DNA of 44,893 nucleotides from a virus (lineage: Duplodnaviria; Caudoviricetes), in the IMG/VR virus record IMGVR_UViG_3300022183_000013, positions 1-44,893 of that record; one strand, 5' to 3'. This document shows, in pieces, positions 3,733-37,269 of this stretch (positions within the stretch are counted from its first letter, which is position 1; each line of letters opens with the position of its first letter). Below the pieces are notes generated by a model. That model ran no database searches. It was not told where the DNA came from and was given only the letters and a program-made list of their open reading frames with translations. A program made the translations under genes and the position numbers.

Positions 3733-3937
3733 TCCCAAACGGGCTCCCAAATGGCCAAAACCGGCCATCGCGGCAATCCCAAAATGTTAGTGAATTCAAT
3801 GGCTGGGGAACCTGGATTCGAACCAGGACCGACGGAGTCAGAGTCCGTTGAAGACCCTTGATTTATCATGCCTTTTTCCCCAAACGCTGCTTTTCGAGCA
3901 CTATACATATCAATACCTTACCCGTTTGCTCCCAAAC
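3733..3937. promoter_or_regulatory. Putative integrase arm-type sites and IHF site around attP
   Basis: (T/C)CCCAAA(C/T/A) at 3733, 3745, 3777, 3878 and 3930; perfect IHF consensus TATCAATACCTTA at 3908-3920. Confidence 0.6.
3800..3850 (-). other. attP: attP core: 3' half of tRNA-Gln(CTG)
   Basis: Minus strand CAACGGACT-CTG-ACTCCGTCGGTCCTGGTTCGAATCCAGGTTCCCCAGCCA gives anticodon arm, T-arm and acceptor 3' end with CCA; no canonical D-arm; directly downstream of the integrase. Confidence 0.9.
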
Positions 3938-4958
3938 GATTTGTAGACATCGGAAGAATGTCCGCGCCATCTCCGAGAAGGCTTTCGCGAGAGATGTAGA
4001 CAGTGTCGAGAATGCGCCCGACGTCGGCCAACGAGTGACCGCTTGCGCCGGATATCTTCGCATGGGTCCATCCCGACACAATCGCCCATCGGGTGATCGC
4101 CGTCCCTCGTAGATCGTGGAACGTGAGGCCGACAATCCCGGCGCGCTTGGCCGCTTTCCGCCATGAACTGGAGAAGCCATGAGAGGTGTAGGGGCGATCG
4201 CTTTCGTTGGTTACCATCTGGGGGCCGCGCTTTGGTTCTGCCTCTAGCTGGGCGCGCTCCAATGCGGTCAACTCTATTGCCACGCGCGTGCCGGTCTTTT
4301 GTTGCCTTAACCGTATTGTCCCGCCTTGGTAATCGGACCATCGCAGCTTAAGGATGTCTCCTTGCCGCTGTCCCGTGGCCAGCGCGAGGAACATCGCGAA
4401 CTGGAGAGAGTGCGAAGCGTTGGCGTAGAAGGCGTCGACATCGGCTTTCGTCCATACACTGTCCGCCCTTGTCGACCGGTAGAGTTTTCGAACCCGCTCT
4501 AGTGGGTTGGCTTCAATAAGACCGCGATCATCGGCCCATGATAATACAGCCTTCAGCACGGCGATTGTGTAATCGGCCTGCCGGACAGATGACCTTGCCA
4601 GCTCGTCACGCCATTCAAGGATCACGCCTCTTGATTTCTTGGCCTTCAATGCGATCAGGGGGAGTTTGCCAAATTTGGTCTCGATTTTCTTGACGTGCTT
4701 CACGTAGTCGGATCGAGTGCGATCGGCCAGACGGGCGAAATCAGCGGAGTCTTGGTATCGCCTCAAAACATGAAATAGAACCTTGGCGGTTGATTCCGGT
4801 CTCGCCTTCGATGCGGCGGTGTAATTTTCTAGGAATTCGGGTGTGCCCGGCTCGCCATGAATCCTTGGGCCTCCCTTGCCGTAGTAGTAGTAGGTTTGCA
4901 CCGAGCCGTCGGCGAGCTTACAACGGACTCGATTTATGTTTTTGAGGTTGGCCTTCAT
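3918..4958 (-). CDS. int: Tyrosine recombinase (phage integrase)
   Basis: TGQRQGDIL (Arg), FHDLRGT (HxxR), SGHS...VY catalytic motifs; adjacent to attP. Confidence 0.95.
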   Translation of the reverse strand: MKANLKNINRVRCKLADGSVQTYYYYGKGGPRIHGEPGTPEFLENYTAASKARPESTAKVLFHVLRRYQDSADFARLADRTRSDYVKHVKKIETKFGKLPLIALKAKKSRGVILEWRDELARSSVRQADYTIAVLKAVLSWADDRGLIEANPLERVRKLYRSTRADSVWTKADVDAFYANASHSLQFAMFLALATGQRQGDILKLRWSDYQGGTIRLRQQKTGTRVAIELTALERAQLEAEPKRGPQMVTNESDRPYTSHGFSSSWRKAAKRAGIVGLTFHDLRGTAITRWAIVSGWTHAKISGASGHSLADVGRILDTVYISRESLLGDGADILPMSTNRLGANG

Positions 4959-5173: not shown

Positions 5174-5187
5174 GGTCTCTATCCCTC

Positions 5188-5289
5188 CCTACGTTCACCG
5201 GCCAATTTGACGGCCTCCGCACCCGCCGCGTCGTCGGCAAAGCGAACATGATACCTACGTTCACCGGCCAATTTGACGGCCTCCGCACC
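5188..5289 (-). CRISPR. Mini CRISPR-like array B: two identical 36-nt repeats, one 30-nt spacer
   Basis: Repeat (minus strand) GGTGCGGAGGCCGTCAAATTGGCCGGTGAACGTAGG at 5188-5223 and 5254-5289; spacer 5224-5253; internal GGCC...GGCC hairpin. Confidence 0.8.
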
Positions 5290-5399: not shown

Positions 5400-5597
5400 T
5401 CACGCCGCCAGAGCCGGTTTCTGTGCCTCGACGGCAGGGCGATTGAGCGCCTGATGGAGCGCGACTTCTTCCGCTTTCACGGCGGCAAACCCAGCCCGCG
5501 CGGCGGCGTCCGCGTGCTCGGACGAAATCTGATCGGCCAGGCACCGCTTGCGGACTTCGGCCATATCGTTGCATACGTCTTTGAGATGTTCGTTCAT
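5400..5597 (-). CDS. Small hypothetical protein between the TnpB-like gene and array B
   Basis: 65 aa, ATG overlaps the stop of the TnpB-like gene (ATGA), ends in AA. Confidence 0.65.
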   Translation of the reverse strand: MNEHLKDVCNDMAEVRKRCLADQISSEHADAAARAGFAAVKAEEVALHQALNRPAVEAQKPALAA

Positions 5598-6982
5598 GCT
5601 GCTTTCCTTCTCTTTTTGATGGCGCGACGTGCGCTCTTTACTTCCGCCACGGCGGCGGAAATCTCTTTGCCGATGGCGGCGCGCGGCGCTTCATCCGTTG
5701 TGGATCGAAACGCAATGCCCGCTTCATTGGCCTTGTATTCGAGAAACTGAATTGCTGTACCGGGGGCTTGTTCCAGGATCGCGCGATTAACCATGGCCAC
5801 GGTTCGAACGGCGTTCCCGTGGTTTTGCTTGTCACCCTTCGCGGACTTGGTTGTTGTCTTGATGGCAGGAGCGATCAAAGTGATGTCGCCAGCGCCCTTC
5901 AATAACCCGCTTGTCCATTGATGGAGGGACTCGCGACGGATGCGTGCGGCTTTGCCGCTGGCGAGTTGCGCTCGTCTTGTCCACTCTTTCCACCGCCGCG
6001 ACCCGCGTTTGAAGCGGGTGTCGCGTTCGGATTTGATCCGGTCAGCCTTTACCGTGAGGCGGGCGGCAGCTGCCATTTGACCGACTTCAACGCCCACATT
6101 GGCGGGCGGCGGCGTTCCTGTCCCCCTGTCGTCACCGGCTATTTGACCGGCCTCAACACCCTGCTCGGCCACGAGCCGGTACCACTTCACCCTGTCGTCA
6201 CCGGCTATTTGACCGGCCTCAACACCAGATGTTGAATAAGCCGTTGAAGTAGGCTGGTGATTCGCGACTTCCGTCATTGGAAAACGCGGGGGGGACATCC
6301 CCCCATTCCGCTCAACGCGAGCGAATTCGTCGATTAGGTTCATGTGAACGGTAAGGTCATCCGAGCCGGAAACGCGCCGGGCGGGCAGTTTCACCACGGC
6401 GGATAACCACCATGCGCCCTCGCGCCACAATACCTCACATGACCGGATTTGCTCGGGCTCGGTTGGGTCGATTGGAAACCGACCACGCACCTTTACTTCG
6501 CCTATGCCGAAAAACTTAGCGCGCCAGAGCTTCCCGGCCTTGTGCATCTTCCACCCACGATCACGGAACGGTATGGACGGGTGCCGGTCAGGATGACGGA
6601 ATCTCGGGTGCCCCGCTTCGGCGAAACTCTTGCCCTCTTTCAGGCGCCGGAAGAAAGCGGCATACGCCAAGTCGACGGCCTTGATGGCAAGTGCGGCGGT
6701 TGCTGCGGACAGATCCTGAAATTCTGGGCACTCGGAACGGAGCGTTTTGACCTCTTTGGACTGATCGTAAAACGATAGCGATTTGCCGCGCCGTCGGTAG
6801 CACTCCTCGCGTTGCTGAATGGCCGCGTTCCAAATATCACCGCACAAACGCCGCTGAACATGCATCGCGTGGGCCTGGGCCTTGTTCGGGTACATTTTGA
6901 AGGTGTACCGCCGCGCGAACAATTGTTGCGAGGCTGACGGATGATTCGCTATTGTCGTTTCCGAGGAGCGAAGATCGGTCAT
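5594..6982 (-). CDS. TnpB/Cas12-family RNA-guided DNA-binding protein, predicted nuclease-dead, with an in-frame CRISPR-like insertion
   Basis: TnpB motifs RRYTFKMYPNKAQ, IWNAAIQQR, VDLAYAAFFRR..GHPRFR, WWLSAVV, RRESLHQWT, KSAKG...NRAILEQ..G..IQFLEYKA. RuvC-I reads LTVHMNL (no Asp), RuvC-II reads LIAPAI (no Glu), and the Zn ribbon and RuvC-III are missing. RBS GGGAGAG before ATG 6982. Confidence 0.85.
   Translation of the reverse strand: MTDLRSSETTIANHPSASQQLFARRYTFKMYPNKAQAHAMHVQRRLCGDIWNAAIQQREECYRRRGKSLSFYDQSKEVKTLRSECPEFQDLSAATAALAIKAVDLAYAAFFRRLKEGKSFAEAGHPRFRHPDRHPSIPFRDRGWKMHKAGKLWRAKFFGIGEVKVRGRFPIDPTEPEQIRSCEVLWREGAWWLSAVVKLPARRVSGSDDLTVHMNLIDEFARVERNGGMSPPRFPMTEVANHQPTSTAYSTSGVEAGQIAGDDRVKWYRLVAEQGVEAGQIAGDDRGTGTPPPANVGVEVGQMAAAARLTVKADRIKSERDTRFKRGSRRWKEWTRRAQLASGKAARIRRESLHQWTSGLLKGAGDITLIAPAIKTTTKSAKGDKQNHGNAVRTVAMVNRAILEQAPGTAIQFLEYKANEAGIAFRSTTDEAPRAAIGKEISAAVAEVKSARRAIKKRRKAA
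6059..6226 (-). CRISPR. CRISPR-like array A inside the TnpB-like ORF: two identical plus one degenerate 36-nt repeats, two 30-nt spacers
   Basis: Repeat (minus strand) GGTGTTGAGGCCGGTCAAATAGCCGGTGACGACAGG at 6191-6226 and 6125-6160; degenerate copy at 6059-6094 on the same 66-nt period; spacers at 6161-6190 and 6095-6124. Confidence 0.8.
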
Positions 6983-7136
6983 CACCGCTCTCCCGCCTCT
7001 GGTGACCAATCCCGCAATCGCACGGTCGACTTTCTCAACACCCAGATTGATTTAGCCGGGCATACTCCAGCCGCGCCTGCTCCGGCGACGACGGGGGTCA
7101 CGATTTTACAAACAAGCACGCCGCCAAAATCAGCCA

Positions 7137-7556
7137 TCACCGTTCTCCCGTCTCTGGTGTCTCGGATAGGGCGGTCATGCTTCGACTTCCCAAAGAAGTT
7201 TTTGCCCGAGAGGGTGCGTATCCACGCGCGGACGAGATTGAACCGACCAACTGCGCCCCGGTGCCCGTCGGCCAGCCCTCTGGTATGGGTGTCTCGGATA
7301 GGGCGGCGTCGATCATGAGACGGTAGGCGACTCTGTGCATAATGCGCTCCCCCTCATGGGCCGGTGCGGCGGCTCCCAACATCGCATCCGTCGGCTCTCG
7401 CATGGCCTTGATCATGGCGCGGGCGTGCGGGACGTAGCTTTGCCAATAATCATCGATTGGCGTGCTTGGCGTGCAATCGGAAACGCAAATCGCCCTCGCC
7501 ACGCGCTCCACCATCTCCGGGGTAGGGGTAGGGGTAGGGGTGCGGCGGGTGGTCAT
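7137..7556 (-). CDS. Phage hypothetical protein
   Basis: EMVERVARAIC...ARAMIKAMREPTDAML...MIDAAL, a common small phage family; ATG 7556 overlaps the upstream stop. Confidence 0.7.
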   Translation of the reverse strand: MTTRRTPTPTPTPEMVERVARAICVSDCTPSTPIDDYWQSYVPHARAMIKAMREPTDAMLGAAAPAHEGERIMHRVAYRLMIDAALSETPIPEGWPTGTGAQLVGSISSARGYAPSRAKTSLGSRSMTALSETPETGER

Positions 7557-12041: not shown

Positions 12042-12716
12042 TTAGGCGGCTTTGTCGGATTGCTCGGAGGCGACTGGCGCGGGCTGTTTTTCGAGCCAAT
12101 CGAGCGCGGACCCGACGGTCGACTTAACGTCCTCGGGGCCGTCGTAATCGTCGGAAAGCCAGTGTTCGCGGGCGTGCTCAACCGGGAAGCACCGGCATCC
12201 CGCATAGACAATCCACTCGCCGTCTTCGGCGCGGGCGATCCACGAATAGCCGCGCGGGTCGCTAACCGGCAGTTTCTTGATTGAATGCTGACCGATCAGG
12301 TCGGCCTCGCTTAGGCCGGCACCGCGCAAATCGGCCTCGCGCAGGTCGGCACCGCGCAAATCGGCGCCGCGCAGGCTGGCGCCGCGCATGTCGGAGCCGC
12401 GCAGGCTGGCATCGATCAGTTCGGCACCGTTCAGGCTGGCGCCGCGCAGGAAAGCACCGTGCAGGTCGGCATCGATCAGACAAGCACCGCGCAGGTCGAC
12501 ACCGTTCAGGTCGACACCGCGCAGACCGGCCTCGCTTAGGTCGACACCGCGCAGGTCGCAACCGCGCAGGTCGCCACCGTTCAGGTCGCCACCGTTGGCG
12601 AGCCCCCACTTAACCGCCAAGCCAATCTTGACCGAGCGAAGCGCATTTTCATCACAATCGATTTCAGCGGTGAATTGGACGTTGCCTGTCCAGCGGTTTT
12701 TGATCTCGAATTTCAC
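12042..12716 (-). CDS. Pentapeptide-repeat protein
   Basis: MKFEIKNRWTG N-terminus, a long run of (A/G)(D/S)L(R/S)G pentapeptides, C-terminal AGCRCF...AREHW domain. Confidence 0.92.
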   Translation of the reverse strand: MKFEIKNRWTGNVQFTAEIDCDENALRSVKIGLAVKWGLANGGDLNGGDLRGCDLRGVDLSEAGLRGVDLNGVDLRGACLIDADLHGAFLRGASLNGAELIDASLRGSDMRGASLRGADLRGADLREADLRGAGLSEADLIGQHSIKKLPVSDPRGYSWIARAEDGEWIVYAGCRCFPVEHAREHWLSDDYDGPEDVKSTVGSALDWLEKQPAPVASEQSDKAA

Positions 12717-31649: not shown

Positions 31650-32678
31650 ATGGGCTTGCTTGACGATAGACAGAGCGGGTTGTTGGCGATGCAGCACAAC
31701 ATCGACCCGCGATACAAGGCGGCGGCGCGAGCCCCGGCGGCTCAGGTGTTGCGCGGACTTCTAGCCCCGCAACAGTTGGCCGAGATGGCGCTGGCGTTTG
31801 CCCCTGGATCTGGCGACGCGATGGCGGTTCGCGATGGGCAACAGAATTTCGCGGACATGCGGAAGTCTATCGAGGGCGGCGACTACGGCAAGGCCGCGTC
31901 CGATGCGATATACGGCACGACGGCCTATGCGTCGGCGTTGCCTGTGTTGGGGGCGGCGATTCCGCATTTCGGGGGGATGGTCAAGGCGGTTCGCGGGGCG
32001 GGGAAGGCTGCGGATCTGCCGATGGACGAGGCGTCGAGGATGGCGCGGGCGGATGAGCATTTCCCGGTTGAGGCGTTCCACGGGACCAACAAGGATTTCC
32101 CCGAGTTTGGGGCGCGCGGAAGCGCGACAAAGGCAAAAAGCGCGAAGAAGGCATATTGGTTCGTTGAAGACCCGAAAAGCGCGGGCGGGTACGCAGATAA
32201 TGCGGCAGATTCAGACGTTCAAAAATTGATTGATGCGTCACAAGCCGCCGAGCGTAGGGGCGAATGGGACAATGCCAATTCATTGATGGTGCAGGCGGAA
32301 AAATTGGAACAGTCCACACCGCATCGCGGGCAGAGCGTGATTCCGGCGCGACTTGGTGGGAACCTAAAAGAAGTTGATATGGATGGCGTCCAATATGACC
32401 CCGACGATGTGAACTTGTCGGAGATATTGGACGGCGCGAAGTCAGAGGGTTTTGATGGTGTGAAGCTCATGAACTTCTCCGATGAGGCGGGATACGGTCA
32501 ATATAATCCGACCACCCATTATGCCGTTTTCGACCCGAAAAACATCCGCTCTCGCTTCGCCAAGTTCGACCCGAAAAACCGGAACAGTCGCGACCTTCTG
32601 GCCGGCGTGGCTGGCGCTGGGCTCTTAGCGGCACCTGTCGCCCGCGGGATGCTCGCGGACGATCAGCAGCCTTATTGA
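31650..32678 (+). CDS. Protein with an ADP-ribosyltransferase-like (ART-PolyVal type) domain
   Basis: AFHGT...YWF......YA...VIPARL...GFDGV...YAVFDPKNIRSRFAKFDP; hydrophobic/glycine-rich N-terminus. Confidence 0.7.
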   Translation: MGLLDDRQSGLLAMQHNIDPRYKAAARAPAAQVLRGLLAPQQLAEMALAFAPGSGDAMAVRDGQQNFADMRKSIEGGDYGKAASDAIYGTTAYASALPVLGAAIPHFGGMVKAVRGAGKAADLPMDEASRMARADEHFPVEAFHGTNKDFPEFGARGSATKAKSAKKAYWFVEDPKSAGGYADNAADSDVQKLIDASQAAERRGEWDNANSLMVQAEKLEQSTPHRGQSVIPARLGGNLKEVDMDGVQYDPDDVNLSEILDGAKSEGFDGVKLMNFSDEAGYGQYNPTTHYAVFDPKNIRSRFAKFDPKNRNSRDLLAGVAGAGLLAAPVARGMLADDQQPY

Positions 32679-35039: not shown

Positions 35040-36578
35040 ATGGCTGTCCCCTCCGGAACGACTACCACGTTCGACCTCACGGGCGTTCGTGAAGACCTGA
35101 GTAACTTGATATTTAACATCTCACCAACGGAAACTCCCGCAGTGAGTAACATGAAGAAGGGCACCGCAACCAACACCTACCATGAGTAAATAGCTTGCTC
35201 ATGTAAAATCTGGCTATATGCTGGGAAGCCCTTAGAGCCCGTGAGCCTAAACAGTAGTTGGAAACGACAAGCTGCATGGTTTGAACAGTCACGGGATTGG
35301 GTAATCAGCAGGGAAGGCCGCTAAATCTTCGGACAAGCGGAACCCTCAGAGGCTAATACGCCAGACGCGCCACTTGTGGCGTGATGATAGAGTCCGACCT
35401 TGCGGGAAACCGCAAGAGGTGCCGAAGTGAAGTAGGCGCCCGCCACGAAAGTGGTCAGTAGAGGCCGGGAGTCCTCGAAAGTAACAGATTGGGCAAACCG
35501 ACTCCCTCGCCGCCGCCGCGTCGAATTCTCATCTCGACGGCGACGATTCGAGCCCGAATACCATTCAGGCGACTTCGCGCCTTGGCAATTATACGCAAAT
35601 CCTGAAGAAGACCGTCCAGGTTTCCGGCACTTCCGACGCCGTGACCAAGTCCGGTCGAGCGAAGGAAATCGCGTATCAGTTGTCTAAGAGATCGAAGGAG
35701 CTGAAGCGCGATCTTGAGCTTTCGGTGACGCAGAACAGTGCCGCGGTTGCCGGCAGTTCCGCGACGGCTCGCGCCATGGCCGGCATGGAAACGTGGATCG
35801 CGTCCAACAAGGACAATTATACCGACGGCACCACGCCGGTAACGTCCTCGGGCGCTGCCACCACGGCTCCGACCGACGGCACCACCGTTCGGACCTTGAC
35901 CGAGGCTCAACTGAAGACCGTTCTTGCTTCGGCTTGGGACTCGGGCGGCGATCCGTCGACCTTCATGGTGGGCTCGTTCAACAAGCAGCAGGCTTCGACC
36001 TTCTCCGGCATCGCGACGTTGTATCGCGATACCGCGCCGAAGGTTGGCCAGACGCAGATCATCGGCGCCGCCGATGTCTATGTGTTAAATTCCGGCACCC
36101 TCGCGGCGTAACCCGCGAGTGCAAACCAGGTGAATTGCTGGGACACCCTAACGAGTGATGTCGAGGGCAATCAGCAGCCAAGCCCCGGTGGGGAAGGTTC
36201 AACGACCATCCGCGAGGAGTAGGGCCAAGTGGTCCGAAGCGCCTGGCGCCCGAACCCGGTTGGGAGGGCGATGATATGGTCTCATCTGCATGGAGACATG
36301 CAGCCGCGAAAGCGGGCACGGCTTAACGCCCCGTGTCGAAGATAAATACGGATTTCGGTCAGCTTGCGATCGTCCCCAACCGCTTCATGCGCGGTCGGAC
36401 GGGCTTGGTGGTCGATTGGGATTACTGGAAGTTGTGCCCGCTGTCTGGGCGTTCGTTCAAGCAGGAGCGCTTGGCGAAGACCGGTGATTCCGAGAAGCGC
36501 CACATTCTAGGGGAATATACCCTTGAATGCTGCAACGAGGCCGCAAGCGGTAAGATCGCGGACCTCGCCGTAGCTTAG
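35040..36578 (+). CDS. Major capsid protein (DUF5309/SU10-like), spliced: join(35040..35187,35492..36085,36349..36578), 323 aa
   Basis: Exon 1 MAVP...VREDLSNLIFNISPTETP...YHE; splicing restores HEW|QTDSL and ADVYVS|DFGQLAIVPNRF; exons total 972 nt in frame. Confidence 0.88.
35188..35491 (+). ncRNA. Group I intron 1 in the major capsid gene (304 nt, no ORF)
   Basis: 5' exon ends in U paired to G in P1 (CATGAGT/GCTCATG); P/Q/R/S-like motifs TATGCTGGGAA, AATCAGCAGG, TCAGAGGCTA, GATAGAGTCC; terminal G at 35491. Confidence 0.9.
36086..36348 (+). ncRNA. Group I intron 2 in the major capsid gene (263 nt, no ORF, apparent terminal A)
   Basis: Motifs AATTGCTGGGA, AATCAGCAGCC, TCAACGACCA, GATATGGTC (P7 GACCA/TGGTC); internal guide TCCGGCAC complementary to the ligated junction GTGT|CGGA. 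Confidence 0.85.
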
Positions 36579-36609
36579 GGGTACACCCTACGGCTTGACG
36601 AAAGTCATT

Positions 36610-36654
36610 ACCTCCGGCACCATTGGAGTATCGAAATCGGTGCCGGAGGTTTTT
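36610..36654 (+). terminator. 12-bp hairpin plus T run after the capsid gene, containing the RBS of the HNH gene
   Basis: ACCTCCGGCACC (36610-36621) pairs with GGTGCCGGAGGT (36639-36650), then TTTT and ATG. Confidence 0.75.
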
Positions 36655-37269
36655 ATGGATAAGAGTTGTTTGGAAGAATTTTGTGATGGCCGCGCGGTGG
36701 TTCGTGGGCTTTGCTCGCGGCATTACCGCCGCCTTCAACGAGGTGGGCGCTTGGATGAGGCCCCGCCAACAGCCGGCGTGCGGAACTTGGCGGCGGGCGT
36801 TGATCTATCGCATATCAAAAAGCCGTTGGCCGAACGGTTTTGGGCCAAGGTGGATGTTCGAGGGCCGGGCGAGTGTTGGGCGTTCACCGGCAGTCCTGGG
36901 ATGCATGGATACGGGGTAATTCGTGACAAGAACAAACAGCGACGAGCGCACCGCGTATCATATGAATTGTCGAAGGGAGAAATCCCGGAAGGGATGGTGG
37001 TTTGTCATTCCTGCGATAACCCGCCTTGTGTGAACCCGAACCATTTGTTTCTGGGGACAGTTCAAGCGAACAACAGAGACATGGATAGAAAGGGGCGCCG
37101 AAATGTGGCCCGAGGCAGTGACAGGCGTGGGTCAAAGCTGACGGACGACTTGGTGCGTGAGATTCGAGCAAGCCATGAATCCAACAGAGAGTTGGCCGCG
37201 CGTTTCGATCTTCATATGAACACAATATACAATGTTCGCATTCGTAGAACGTGGCGGCACGTCGCTTAG
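36655..37269 (+). CDS. Free-standing HNH homing endonuclease
   Basis: CxxxxC...GLCSRHY N-terminus, RFWAKVD...CW, RAHRVSY, VCHSCDNPPCVNPNHL...N..DM, C-terminal HTH. Confidence 0.92.
   Translation: MDKSCLEEFCDGRAVVRGLCSRHYRRLQRGGRLDEAPPTAGVRNLAAGVDLSHIKKPLAERFWAKVDVRGPGECWAFTGSPGMHGYGVIRDKNKQRRAHRVSYELSKGEIPEGMVVCHSCDNPPCVNPNHLFLGTVQANNRDMDRKGRRNVARGSDRRGSKLTDDLVREIRASHESNRELAARFDLHMNTIYNVRIRRTWRHVA

Follow-up and report, generated by a model that had tools for sequence, protein, structure and literature searches.

The window, as we call the whole stretch of DNA analysed here (44,893 nt), is a single virus record from a temperate phage that encodes an integrase, a terminase and an SU10-type portal and adaptor. 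Two related records (L106 and L109) carry ~8 kb of further genes that link the end of the window back to its start, so the full phage genome is ~53 kb and the window lacks ~8 kb of it. Abutting the end of the integrase gene are 49 nt corresponding to the 3' part of tRNA-Gln(CUG), an attP-like site; a tRNA-Leu call by ARAGORN at the same place appears to be a misreading. The tRNA-Gln core was matched at one mismatch in 4 of 401 alphaproteobacterial genomes, 3 of the 4 within one order represented by 25 genomes, suggesting that the phage host is likely alphaproteobacterial. No relative of the integrase was found in this candidate order at E 1e-40, which leaves the tRNA core as the sole pointer to it. 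Elsewhere in the window, Rfam group I intron matches lie in the head-gene region (35178-35416 and 36076-36303) near an HNH gene (36595-37269) that L106 and L109 appear to lack, a protein with an ART-PolyVal ADP-ribosyltransferase domain is encoded at 31650-32678 in a stretch missing from L106, and a pentapeptide-repeat protein (12042-12716) contains a 15-nt tandem repeat at 12261-12626.

Next to the integrase gene lies a cassette with two small repeat-spacer arrays, one of them inside a gene for a TnpB-like protein. The features of the locus are as follows:

3800..3848, minus strand: attP-like 3' part of tRNA-Gln(CUG), 49 nt
3918..4958, minus strand: tyrosine integrase, a temperate phage gene
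5187..6993, no strand assigned: whole cassette, apparently accessory, 1.8 kb
5188..5289, minus strand: second mini-array, outside the gene, with identical 36-nt repeats at 5254-5289 and 5188-5223
5224-5253, minus strand: spacer 3, in the second mini-array, replaced in the relative L010
5290..5400, minus strand: second leader/scaffold with a strong anti-repeat (rank 1 of 14)
5400..5597, minus strand: 65-aa ORF, its start overlapping the stop of the effector gene, without a Pfam family
5594..6982, minus strand: TnpB-like effector, 462 aa when started at the ATG (moved out to a TTG at 7009 by the ORF finder)
6059..6094, minus strand: degenerate terminal repeat 3
6095..6124, minus strand: spacer 2 (trailer), common to the relatives L009 and L010 with 4 differences
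6125..6160, minus strand: repeat 2, identical to repeat 1
6161..6190, minus strand: spacer 1, leader-proximal, 30 nt, coding for a Sel1-repeat motif, in frame as effector residues 265-274
6191..6226, minus strand: repeat 1 of the intragenic array, 36 nt, with a hairpin
6227..6325, minus strand: predicted guide scaffold, a tracr-like leader with stem-loops and an anti-repeat, also protein-coding

The cassette appears to be accessory and absent from a co-occurring relative, because a contig from sequencing run X11 joins position 5186 directly to 6994; its depth was 34.9, compared to about 14 over the cassette. A scan for an empty-site neighbour found nothing, and no spacer resembling the flanks of the empty-site junction, as a homing reading would have it, was seen by eye. 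An 18-nt repeat (window 6985-7002 and 7140-7157) stands ahead of successive early ORFs and at the upstream border of the cassette, where it may mediate cassette exchange. No sigma-70 promoter match was found for the cassette, and RNA runs X19 and X20 each gave two low-depth contigs.

The intragenic array lies in frame within the effector ORF (5594-6982), a placement absent from the first-pass annotation of the spacer, each unit of 36 + 30 = 66 nt adding 22 residues in the effector frame. A 36 + 30 geometry is typical of type II adaptation. The repeats are identical, and the spacers are unique and of constant length. In L009 and L010, whose effector is 93% identical, the first spacer differs while the trailer spacer is common, which indicates spacer turnover at the leader end; L010 also has a different spacer in the second array. 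These are the hallmarks of a CRISPR array. L007 and L008 are identical to the window and were left out as independent cases. A 66-base skip at the second array in run X17 may reflect spacer loss or assembly collapse. No cas1 or cas2 was detected among the 37 window ORFs scanned, and no copy of the 36-nt repeat was present among the candidates scored in 25 attB-candidate genomes.

The best fold match of the effector was ISDra2 TnpB (PDB 8h1j and 8exa, E 1e-14), and the NCBIfam guided_TnpB profile scored 101 bits against a cut-off of 100. The REC-WED-RuvC fold together with this profile match places the protein in the TnpB/Cas12 superfamily. PADLOC returned weak Cas12f, u2, u4 and x1 models only and no Cas12m model, and the NCBIfam profile for type V-U2 (C2c8), NF038192, gave 31 bits against a cut-off of 350. 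Alignment to 19 outgroup TnpB-like proteins as a reference for the catalytic sites revealed His213 in place of the canonical RuvC-I Asp, Ile370 in place of the RuvC-II Glu, and no zinc finger. The D-E-D triad and zinc finger of active TnpB are thus lacking, with the third site aligning ambiguously. These substitutions suggest that the effector is likely nuclease-inactive, consistent with the proposal of the first-pass annotation of silencing rather than cleavage. We word this as likely rather than proven, because two other Asp positions near RuvC-I are conserved in its clade (215 in 91 of 123 members, 218 in 92 of 123; the effector itself has Asn at 215) and because the third site aligns poorly (an acidic residue lies near the ambiguously aligned RuvC-III column in 68 of 123). 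The structural model (mean pLDDT 69) showed ordered halves separated by disordered residues 228-300, which correspond to scaffold and array, and the array is accordingly predicted to be translated as a disordered loop. In L009 and L010, an in-frame TAG truncates the effector about 58 codons before its end, and their arrays keep distinct spacers; the truncated form (P0001, 12 member sequences) also occurs in runs X15, X17 and X20.

A profile search for effector relatives recovered 416 representatives at E at most 1e-30, and 123 of the 142 proteins of at least 370 aa formed one clade (support 0.96). Within this clade the RuvC-I Asp was kept in 9 of 123 members, the RuvC-II Glu in 4 of 123 and the zinc finger in none (0 of 123). 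By a strict test, 59 of 123 clade members contained in-frame repeats; across all 170 proteins, 54 of 63 cases had a period of 22 aa. A derived branch of the tree (34 proteins) has no in-frame repeats. Repeat types differ between family members. At the DNA level, with one locus per identical group and periods read manually, unit lengths were multiples of three in 38 of 38 intragenic units compared to 18 of 42 outside genes, in 8 of 8 compared to 12 of 36 after removal of all 66-nt units, and, counted per array, in 16 of 16 compared to 7 of 17; the intragenic arrays had been found via open frames, and this result is partly by construction. Repeat types whose period varies outside genes were held to 60 or 72/75 inside them, and since such types keep the frame inside genes, the comparison suggests that the intragenic array is translated.

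A single gene of locus L064 holds two in-frame arrays (L064:1699-1905 and 2226-2393) whose repeats are of different types, and the first spacer of one of them contains 19 nt of the other's repeat. Similar spacers (25/30) occur in the upstream array of L032 and L033 and at L034:5019-5048, in arrays of different repeat type, and a spacer upstream of the gene in L035 turns up again within the genes of L032, L033 and L035.

The segment of about 100 nt ahead of the first repeat, the predicted scaffold, carries stem-loops with compensatory changes. Across 16 leaders and 21 pairs (the third helix having been extended manually by five pairs beyond the prediction), 80.8% of cells were paired, a value reached by 0 of 500 shuffles and compared to 42-48% for slid alignments. 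Base pairing with the 3' arm of the repeat is predicted for the anti-repeat, at about 6246-6263. Over 14 arrays, anti-repeats paired better with their own repeat (-11.9 kcal/mol) than with others (-8.1 kcal/mol; 0 of 100,000 permutations), and control segments gave p 0.67 for one and 0.012 for another; relatedness of the sequences inflates both these pairing statistics and the covariation. Pairing of an anti-repeat with the 3' part of the repeat is the mark of tracrRNA-dependent type V (TranC) systems and is found here, with the window's intragenic pair being weak (rank only 6 of 14). No Rfam family matched the scaffold. In L002, the leader has been copied as a block before a second array, and a small ORF lies at the same place as the window's 65-aa ORF.

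We then considered spacer 1. The first-pass annotation had read its minus-strand 30-mer as VKWYRLVAEQ, a Sel1-repeat motif in a leader-proximal spacer, without a second copy in the window. Translation confirmed the peptide, the spacer comes after the conserved leader and is the unit exchanged in L009 and L010, and a search at up to 3 mismatches returned a single occurrence in the window. Among 401 alphaproteobacterial genomes searched at no more than 3 mismatches, matches occurred in one genome only (G344), at two sites with 28/30 and three with 27/30 identities, while the reversed pattern gave 0 matches in the same genomes. All five sites are Sel1 repeats of two genes, with the motif register kept and on the sense strand, in agreement with the earlier statements on guide orientation and on several repeats or paralogues being matchable. 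The first 17 bases of the spacer were matched perfectly at 4 of the 5 sites, and the ORF with both 28/30 sites is a Pfam Sel1 protein (E 1e-50) with a 108-nt period. The neighbours of the two genes are metabolic and transport genes, and an IS transposase adjoins one of them. Two further genomes of the same order (G413 and G406) gave weaker Sel1 matches (26/30).

The likeness was quantified with a Sel1 position matrix built from 61 motifs of four genomes that the spacer does not match, with G344, G413, G406, virus G464 and merG excluded. Spacer 1 scored 28.9 bits. Of 80 other family spacers the highest reached 4.9 bits, and about 40,000 random window 30-mers peaked at 11.3 bits, none of them attaining 28.9. 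An iid model expects about 4e-5 matches at 2 mismatches or fewer over the 401 genomes. Judged from sequence, the Sel1 origin of spacer 1 is secure and the likeness is beyond chance, and the earlier claim that the spacer was taken from a Sel1-repeat gene is borne out by the G344 matches, the Pfam hit and the matrix score. Motif position 7 is Val in spacer 1; among 104 collected motifs, Ala stands there in 97 and Val in 1, so spacer 1 mismatches canonical Sel1 repeats at base 20. Either an atypical donor gene or an alteration of base 20 after capture would explain the Val. No exact protospacer of spacer 1 was found anywhere searched, and GenBank phages offered nothing better than E 2. The gene merG, itself a Sel1 protein, matched at 25/30 and was rejected as a target: its E value was 0.4, and spacer 3 scores an equal E on unrelated plasmid genes, so the merG match counts as motif likeness only.

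The first-pass annotation had further proposed a host gene as the target, with matches expected in the genome that carries the attB tRNA-Gln and with a shared TAM/PAM beside them. The expected coincidence with the attB was not borne out: the best match, G344, lacks the matching tRNA-Gln and the attachment core, and the attP-matching genomes lack a spacer match. No shared TAM/PAM emerged at the target flanks (the 5' flank of the Sel1 site is fixed by the preceding Ala codon, and the flanks of two other family targets differ). The candidate order, sampled by 25 genomes (a single genome for each species, not all complete, and the host itself may be missing from the set), gave 0 matches to spacer 1 at 3 mismatches or fewer. 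Among the Sel1 motifs retrieved from the four genomes that match attP, the closest had 6 mismatches. Sel1 repeats themselves were present in all 5 alphaproteobacterial genomes tested, with 14-38 matches each. Spacer 3 gave 0 matches in 301 and 25 genomes at 3 mismatches or fewer, and an exact 20-mer of it was absent from the viral contigs. For spacer 2, BLAST with the cassette region revealed no target in sets of 33, 25 and 291 genomes (a weak search in the last set, where 2 candidates per genome were scored), and the L010 spacers had no target in the 25 genomes or in plasmids. For other family members, no spacer target was found in G003, G004 or G005, nor in four of five whole virus records (own-genome searches left out the L062 and L063 arrays, and the whole-record spacer set left out the single spacer of L001). 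Self-targeting by the window phage was rejected, as 7 spacers (window, L009 and L010) had no match at up to 8 mismatches in the window and L102-L180, which include the relatives covering the missing ~8 kb.

Our leading reading, held tentatively and at somewhat under an even chance, is that a dead TnpB-like effector is guided to bind, and not cut, a Sel1-repeat gene on a bacterial chromosome, dampening its transcription. We favour it because the best match of spacer 1 is cellular (28/30, G344), because Sel1 repeats are plentiful in alphaproteobacterial genomes and a relaxed Sel1 pattern matched 1 stretch of the viral collection, because runs X15 and X11, which contain this phage or a relative, each yielded a separate Sel1-like contig that aligned to 6159-6191 at 85% or more, because L002 tolerates a perfect target in its own genome, and because dead TnpBs encoded by prophages are known to repress a host gene, by the available text of 10.1101/2023.11.30.569447.

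The strongest alternative, which we consider unlikely, places the Sel1 target in a competing phage or mobile element, the same machine serving competition between viruses or control of phage replication. One virus record, G464, which CheckV rates as 100% complete, contains a 27/30 match within a Sel1 ORF. Its Sel1 repeats (L093:2620-3351) are GC-rich and very like those of G344, in a virus of 47% GC, and its Sel1 ORFs were perhaps acquired from a host. Only two other family spacers have targets, both phage genes (a small sample, most family spacers having been compared only with the collected loci or their own genome), and both fit a rival element: the leader-proximal spacer of L002 (L002:4730-4759 and L002:7044-7073, the same in L017) matches the phage's own HTH_36 replication-initiator-like gene at 30/30 on the sense strand, as a candidate for an RNA-guided switch that controls phage replication, and a spacer of L065 has a 26/30 match, 22 bases of it contiguous, to a lambda-type portal gene that lies on a different contig of its genome. 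The IS transposase beside one G344 Sel1 gene and the precedent of Cas12m and viral mini-arrays, as presented in the available text of PMC11656645, point the same way. Against this, the best match is cellular; the relaxed pattern matched only 1 viral stretch, and none matched the exact 19-mer; no Sel1 gene was found in the records of four close relatives; and nothing matched at up to 8 mismatches in the window or the ~8 kb added by L106 and L109.

It is distinctly improbable, in our judgement, that spacer 1 is a bystander of naive adaptation, harmless with a dead effector and free of in-frame stops, and that no Sel1 silencing is under selection. Sel1 repeats are abundant host DNA, the atypical Val codon may have arisen by drift once the spacer was captured, the spacers of a close relative are different and the cassette appears to be missing from a more abundant co-occurring relative, all as a bystander would have it; but spacer 1 is unchanged in runs X11 and X14, dated 2014 and 2022 and hence eight years apart, and its mismatch is distant from the 5' end, the place of the seed in TnpB-type guides (about 6 nt in TldR, according to the available text of 10.1101/2023.11.30.569447). 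Very improbable is a nuclease that remains active through a rearranged site, or an array that feeds a host Cas effector with its intragenic place incidental: the conserved Asp at 215 and 218, the acidic residue near RuvC-III, the rearranged TnpB sites described as common in the available text of PMC10691335 and the differing repeat types agree with it, but the effector has Asn at 215, the RuvC-II Glu and zinc finger are lost, L002 tolerates a perfect self-target, a covarying scaffold tied to the effector gene precedes the arrays, and the 25 attB-candidate genomes showed no repeat copy among the candidates scored.

Under the leading reading of a dead effector bound to a chromosomal Sel1 gene, the effector transcript would be processed to a guide of scaffold, repeat and spacer, with the scaffold anti-repeat pairing with the 3' arm of the repeat as a tracr-like RNA in cis. 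New 30-nt spacers would be added at the leader end by a host Cas1-Cas2 in trans, and the 66-nt unit would keep the frame, each unit lengthening the disordered loop by 22 residues. The guide would pair with the template strand inside the ORF and form a roadblock, perhaps on several repeats simultaneously, and a dead effector would make a match to self or host tolerable. A TnpB that cuts its guide from its own mRNA has been reported (PMC10278001, in its available text); cutting guides from the effector's own mRNA would here need another nuclease. Rather doubtful is the fuller version, in which the phage directs a self-updating CRISPRi against its host, the reading frame doubling as guide array, with acquired spacers translated and several Sel1 paralogues silenced. 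Weighing against the leading reading are the position of the spacer-1 site in mid-ORF, away from a promoter, the mismatch of base 20 to canonical Sel1, the stop 58 codons before the effector end in L009 and L010 despite their different spacers, and the statement in the available text of PMC11656645 that the mini-arrays of phages are mostly directed at related viruses. Should the Sel1 target prove chromosomal, a phage would be acquiring spacers against host genes for regulation, and Sel1 proteins would be factors that matter to phages. The targets found (Sel1, the own initiator-like gene and the portal gene) make binding and PAM directly testable.

In the literature covered, which includes 10.64898/2026.04.20.719267 and leaves out subscription journals and bioRxiv supplements, we found no array translated inside a TnpB or Cas12 gene and no Sel1-directed phage guide. 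Compared to ISDra2 TnpB, its best fold match, the window system lacks the catalytic Asp and Glu, the zinc finger and a transposase, and its guide region is repeated in mid-gene rather than a single 3' element. TranC and the V-U6 to V-U45 groups resemble it in having a TnpB-like effector newly linked to an array and a tracr-like RNA, and one TranC was found in a phage (available texts of 10.64898/2026.03.27.714800 and PMC10691335); the TranC systems described there are active nucleases, whereas the window effector lacks the canonical site and has scaffold and array translated within it. The comparison with V-U6 to V-U45 (PMC10691335, available text) is by description only. Viral CRISPR mini-arrays likewise have one or two spacers in a virus without adaptation genes, but by the available text of PMC11656645 they copy host repeats and use host effectors, whereas the window system has its own effector and scaffold.

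TldR and Cas12m are closest in action. TldR proteins are TnpB-sized and lack canonical catalytic residues (10.1101/2023.11.30.569447, PMC13622181), and members of one TldR clade are encoded by prophages and bind DNA to repress a host gene. As far as the available text of these sources goes, the described clades are tied to fliC, csrA or oppF with a gRNA scaffold and one guide, and 'CRISPR array' occurs 0 times in that of PMC13622181, whereas the window system has exchangeable 30-nt spacers between repeats inside a coding sequence, and its neighbours are a 65-aa ORF, a 72-aa ORF and the integrase rather than a fliC, csrA or oppF partner. Cas12m (type V-M) shares an inactivated RuvC and a CRISPR array, is carried by plasmids and prophages and blocks transcription by binding (PMC11656645, PMC11013384, available texts); its chains in solved structures are longer (516-604 resolved residues), it is only a distant fold match to the effector (rank 21 and below), which falls outside the family, and an array inside the gene is not described for it in the available text of the two sources. 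Known dead TnpB repressors have fixed guides and known dead Cas12 systems have the array outside the gene, whereas here the scaffold, the repeats and the spacers are all protein-coding and spacer exchange leaves the frame intact, making a compact single-gene programmable DNA binder of 462 aa, guide region included, the predicted product and pointing to an apparent further route from TnpB to CRISPR. The window system works like TldR or Cas12m, yet by their defining features it belongs to neither.
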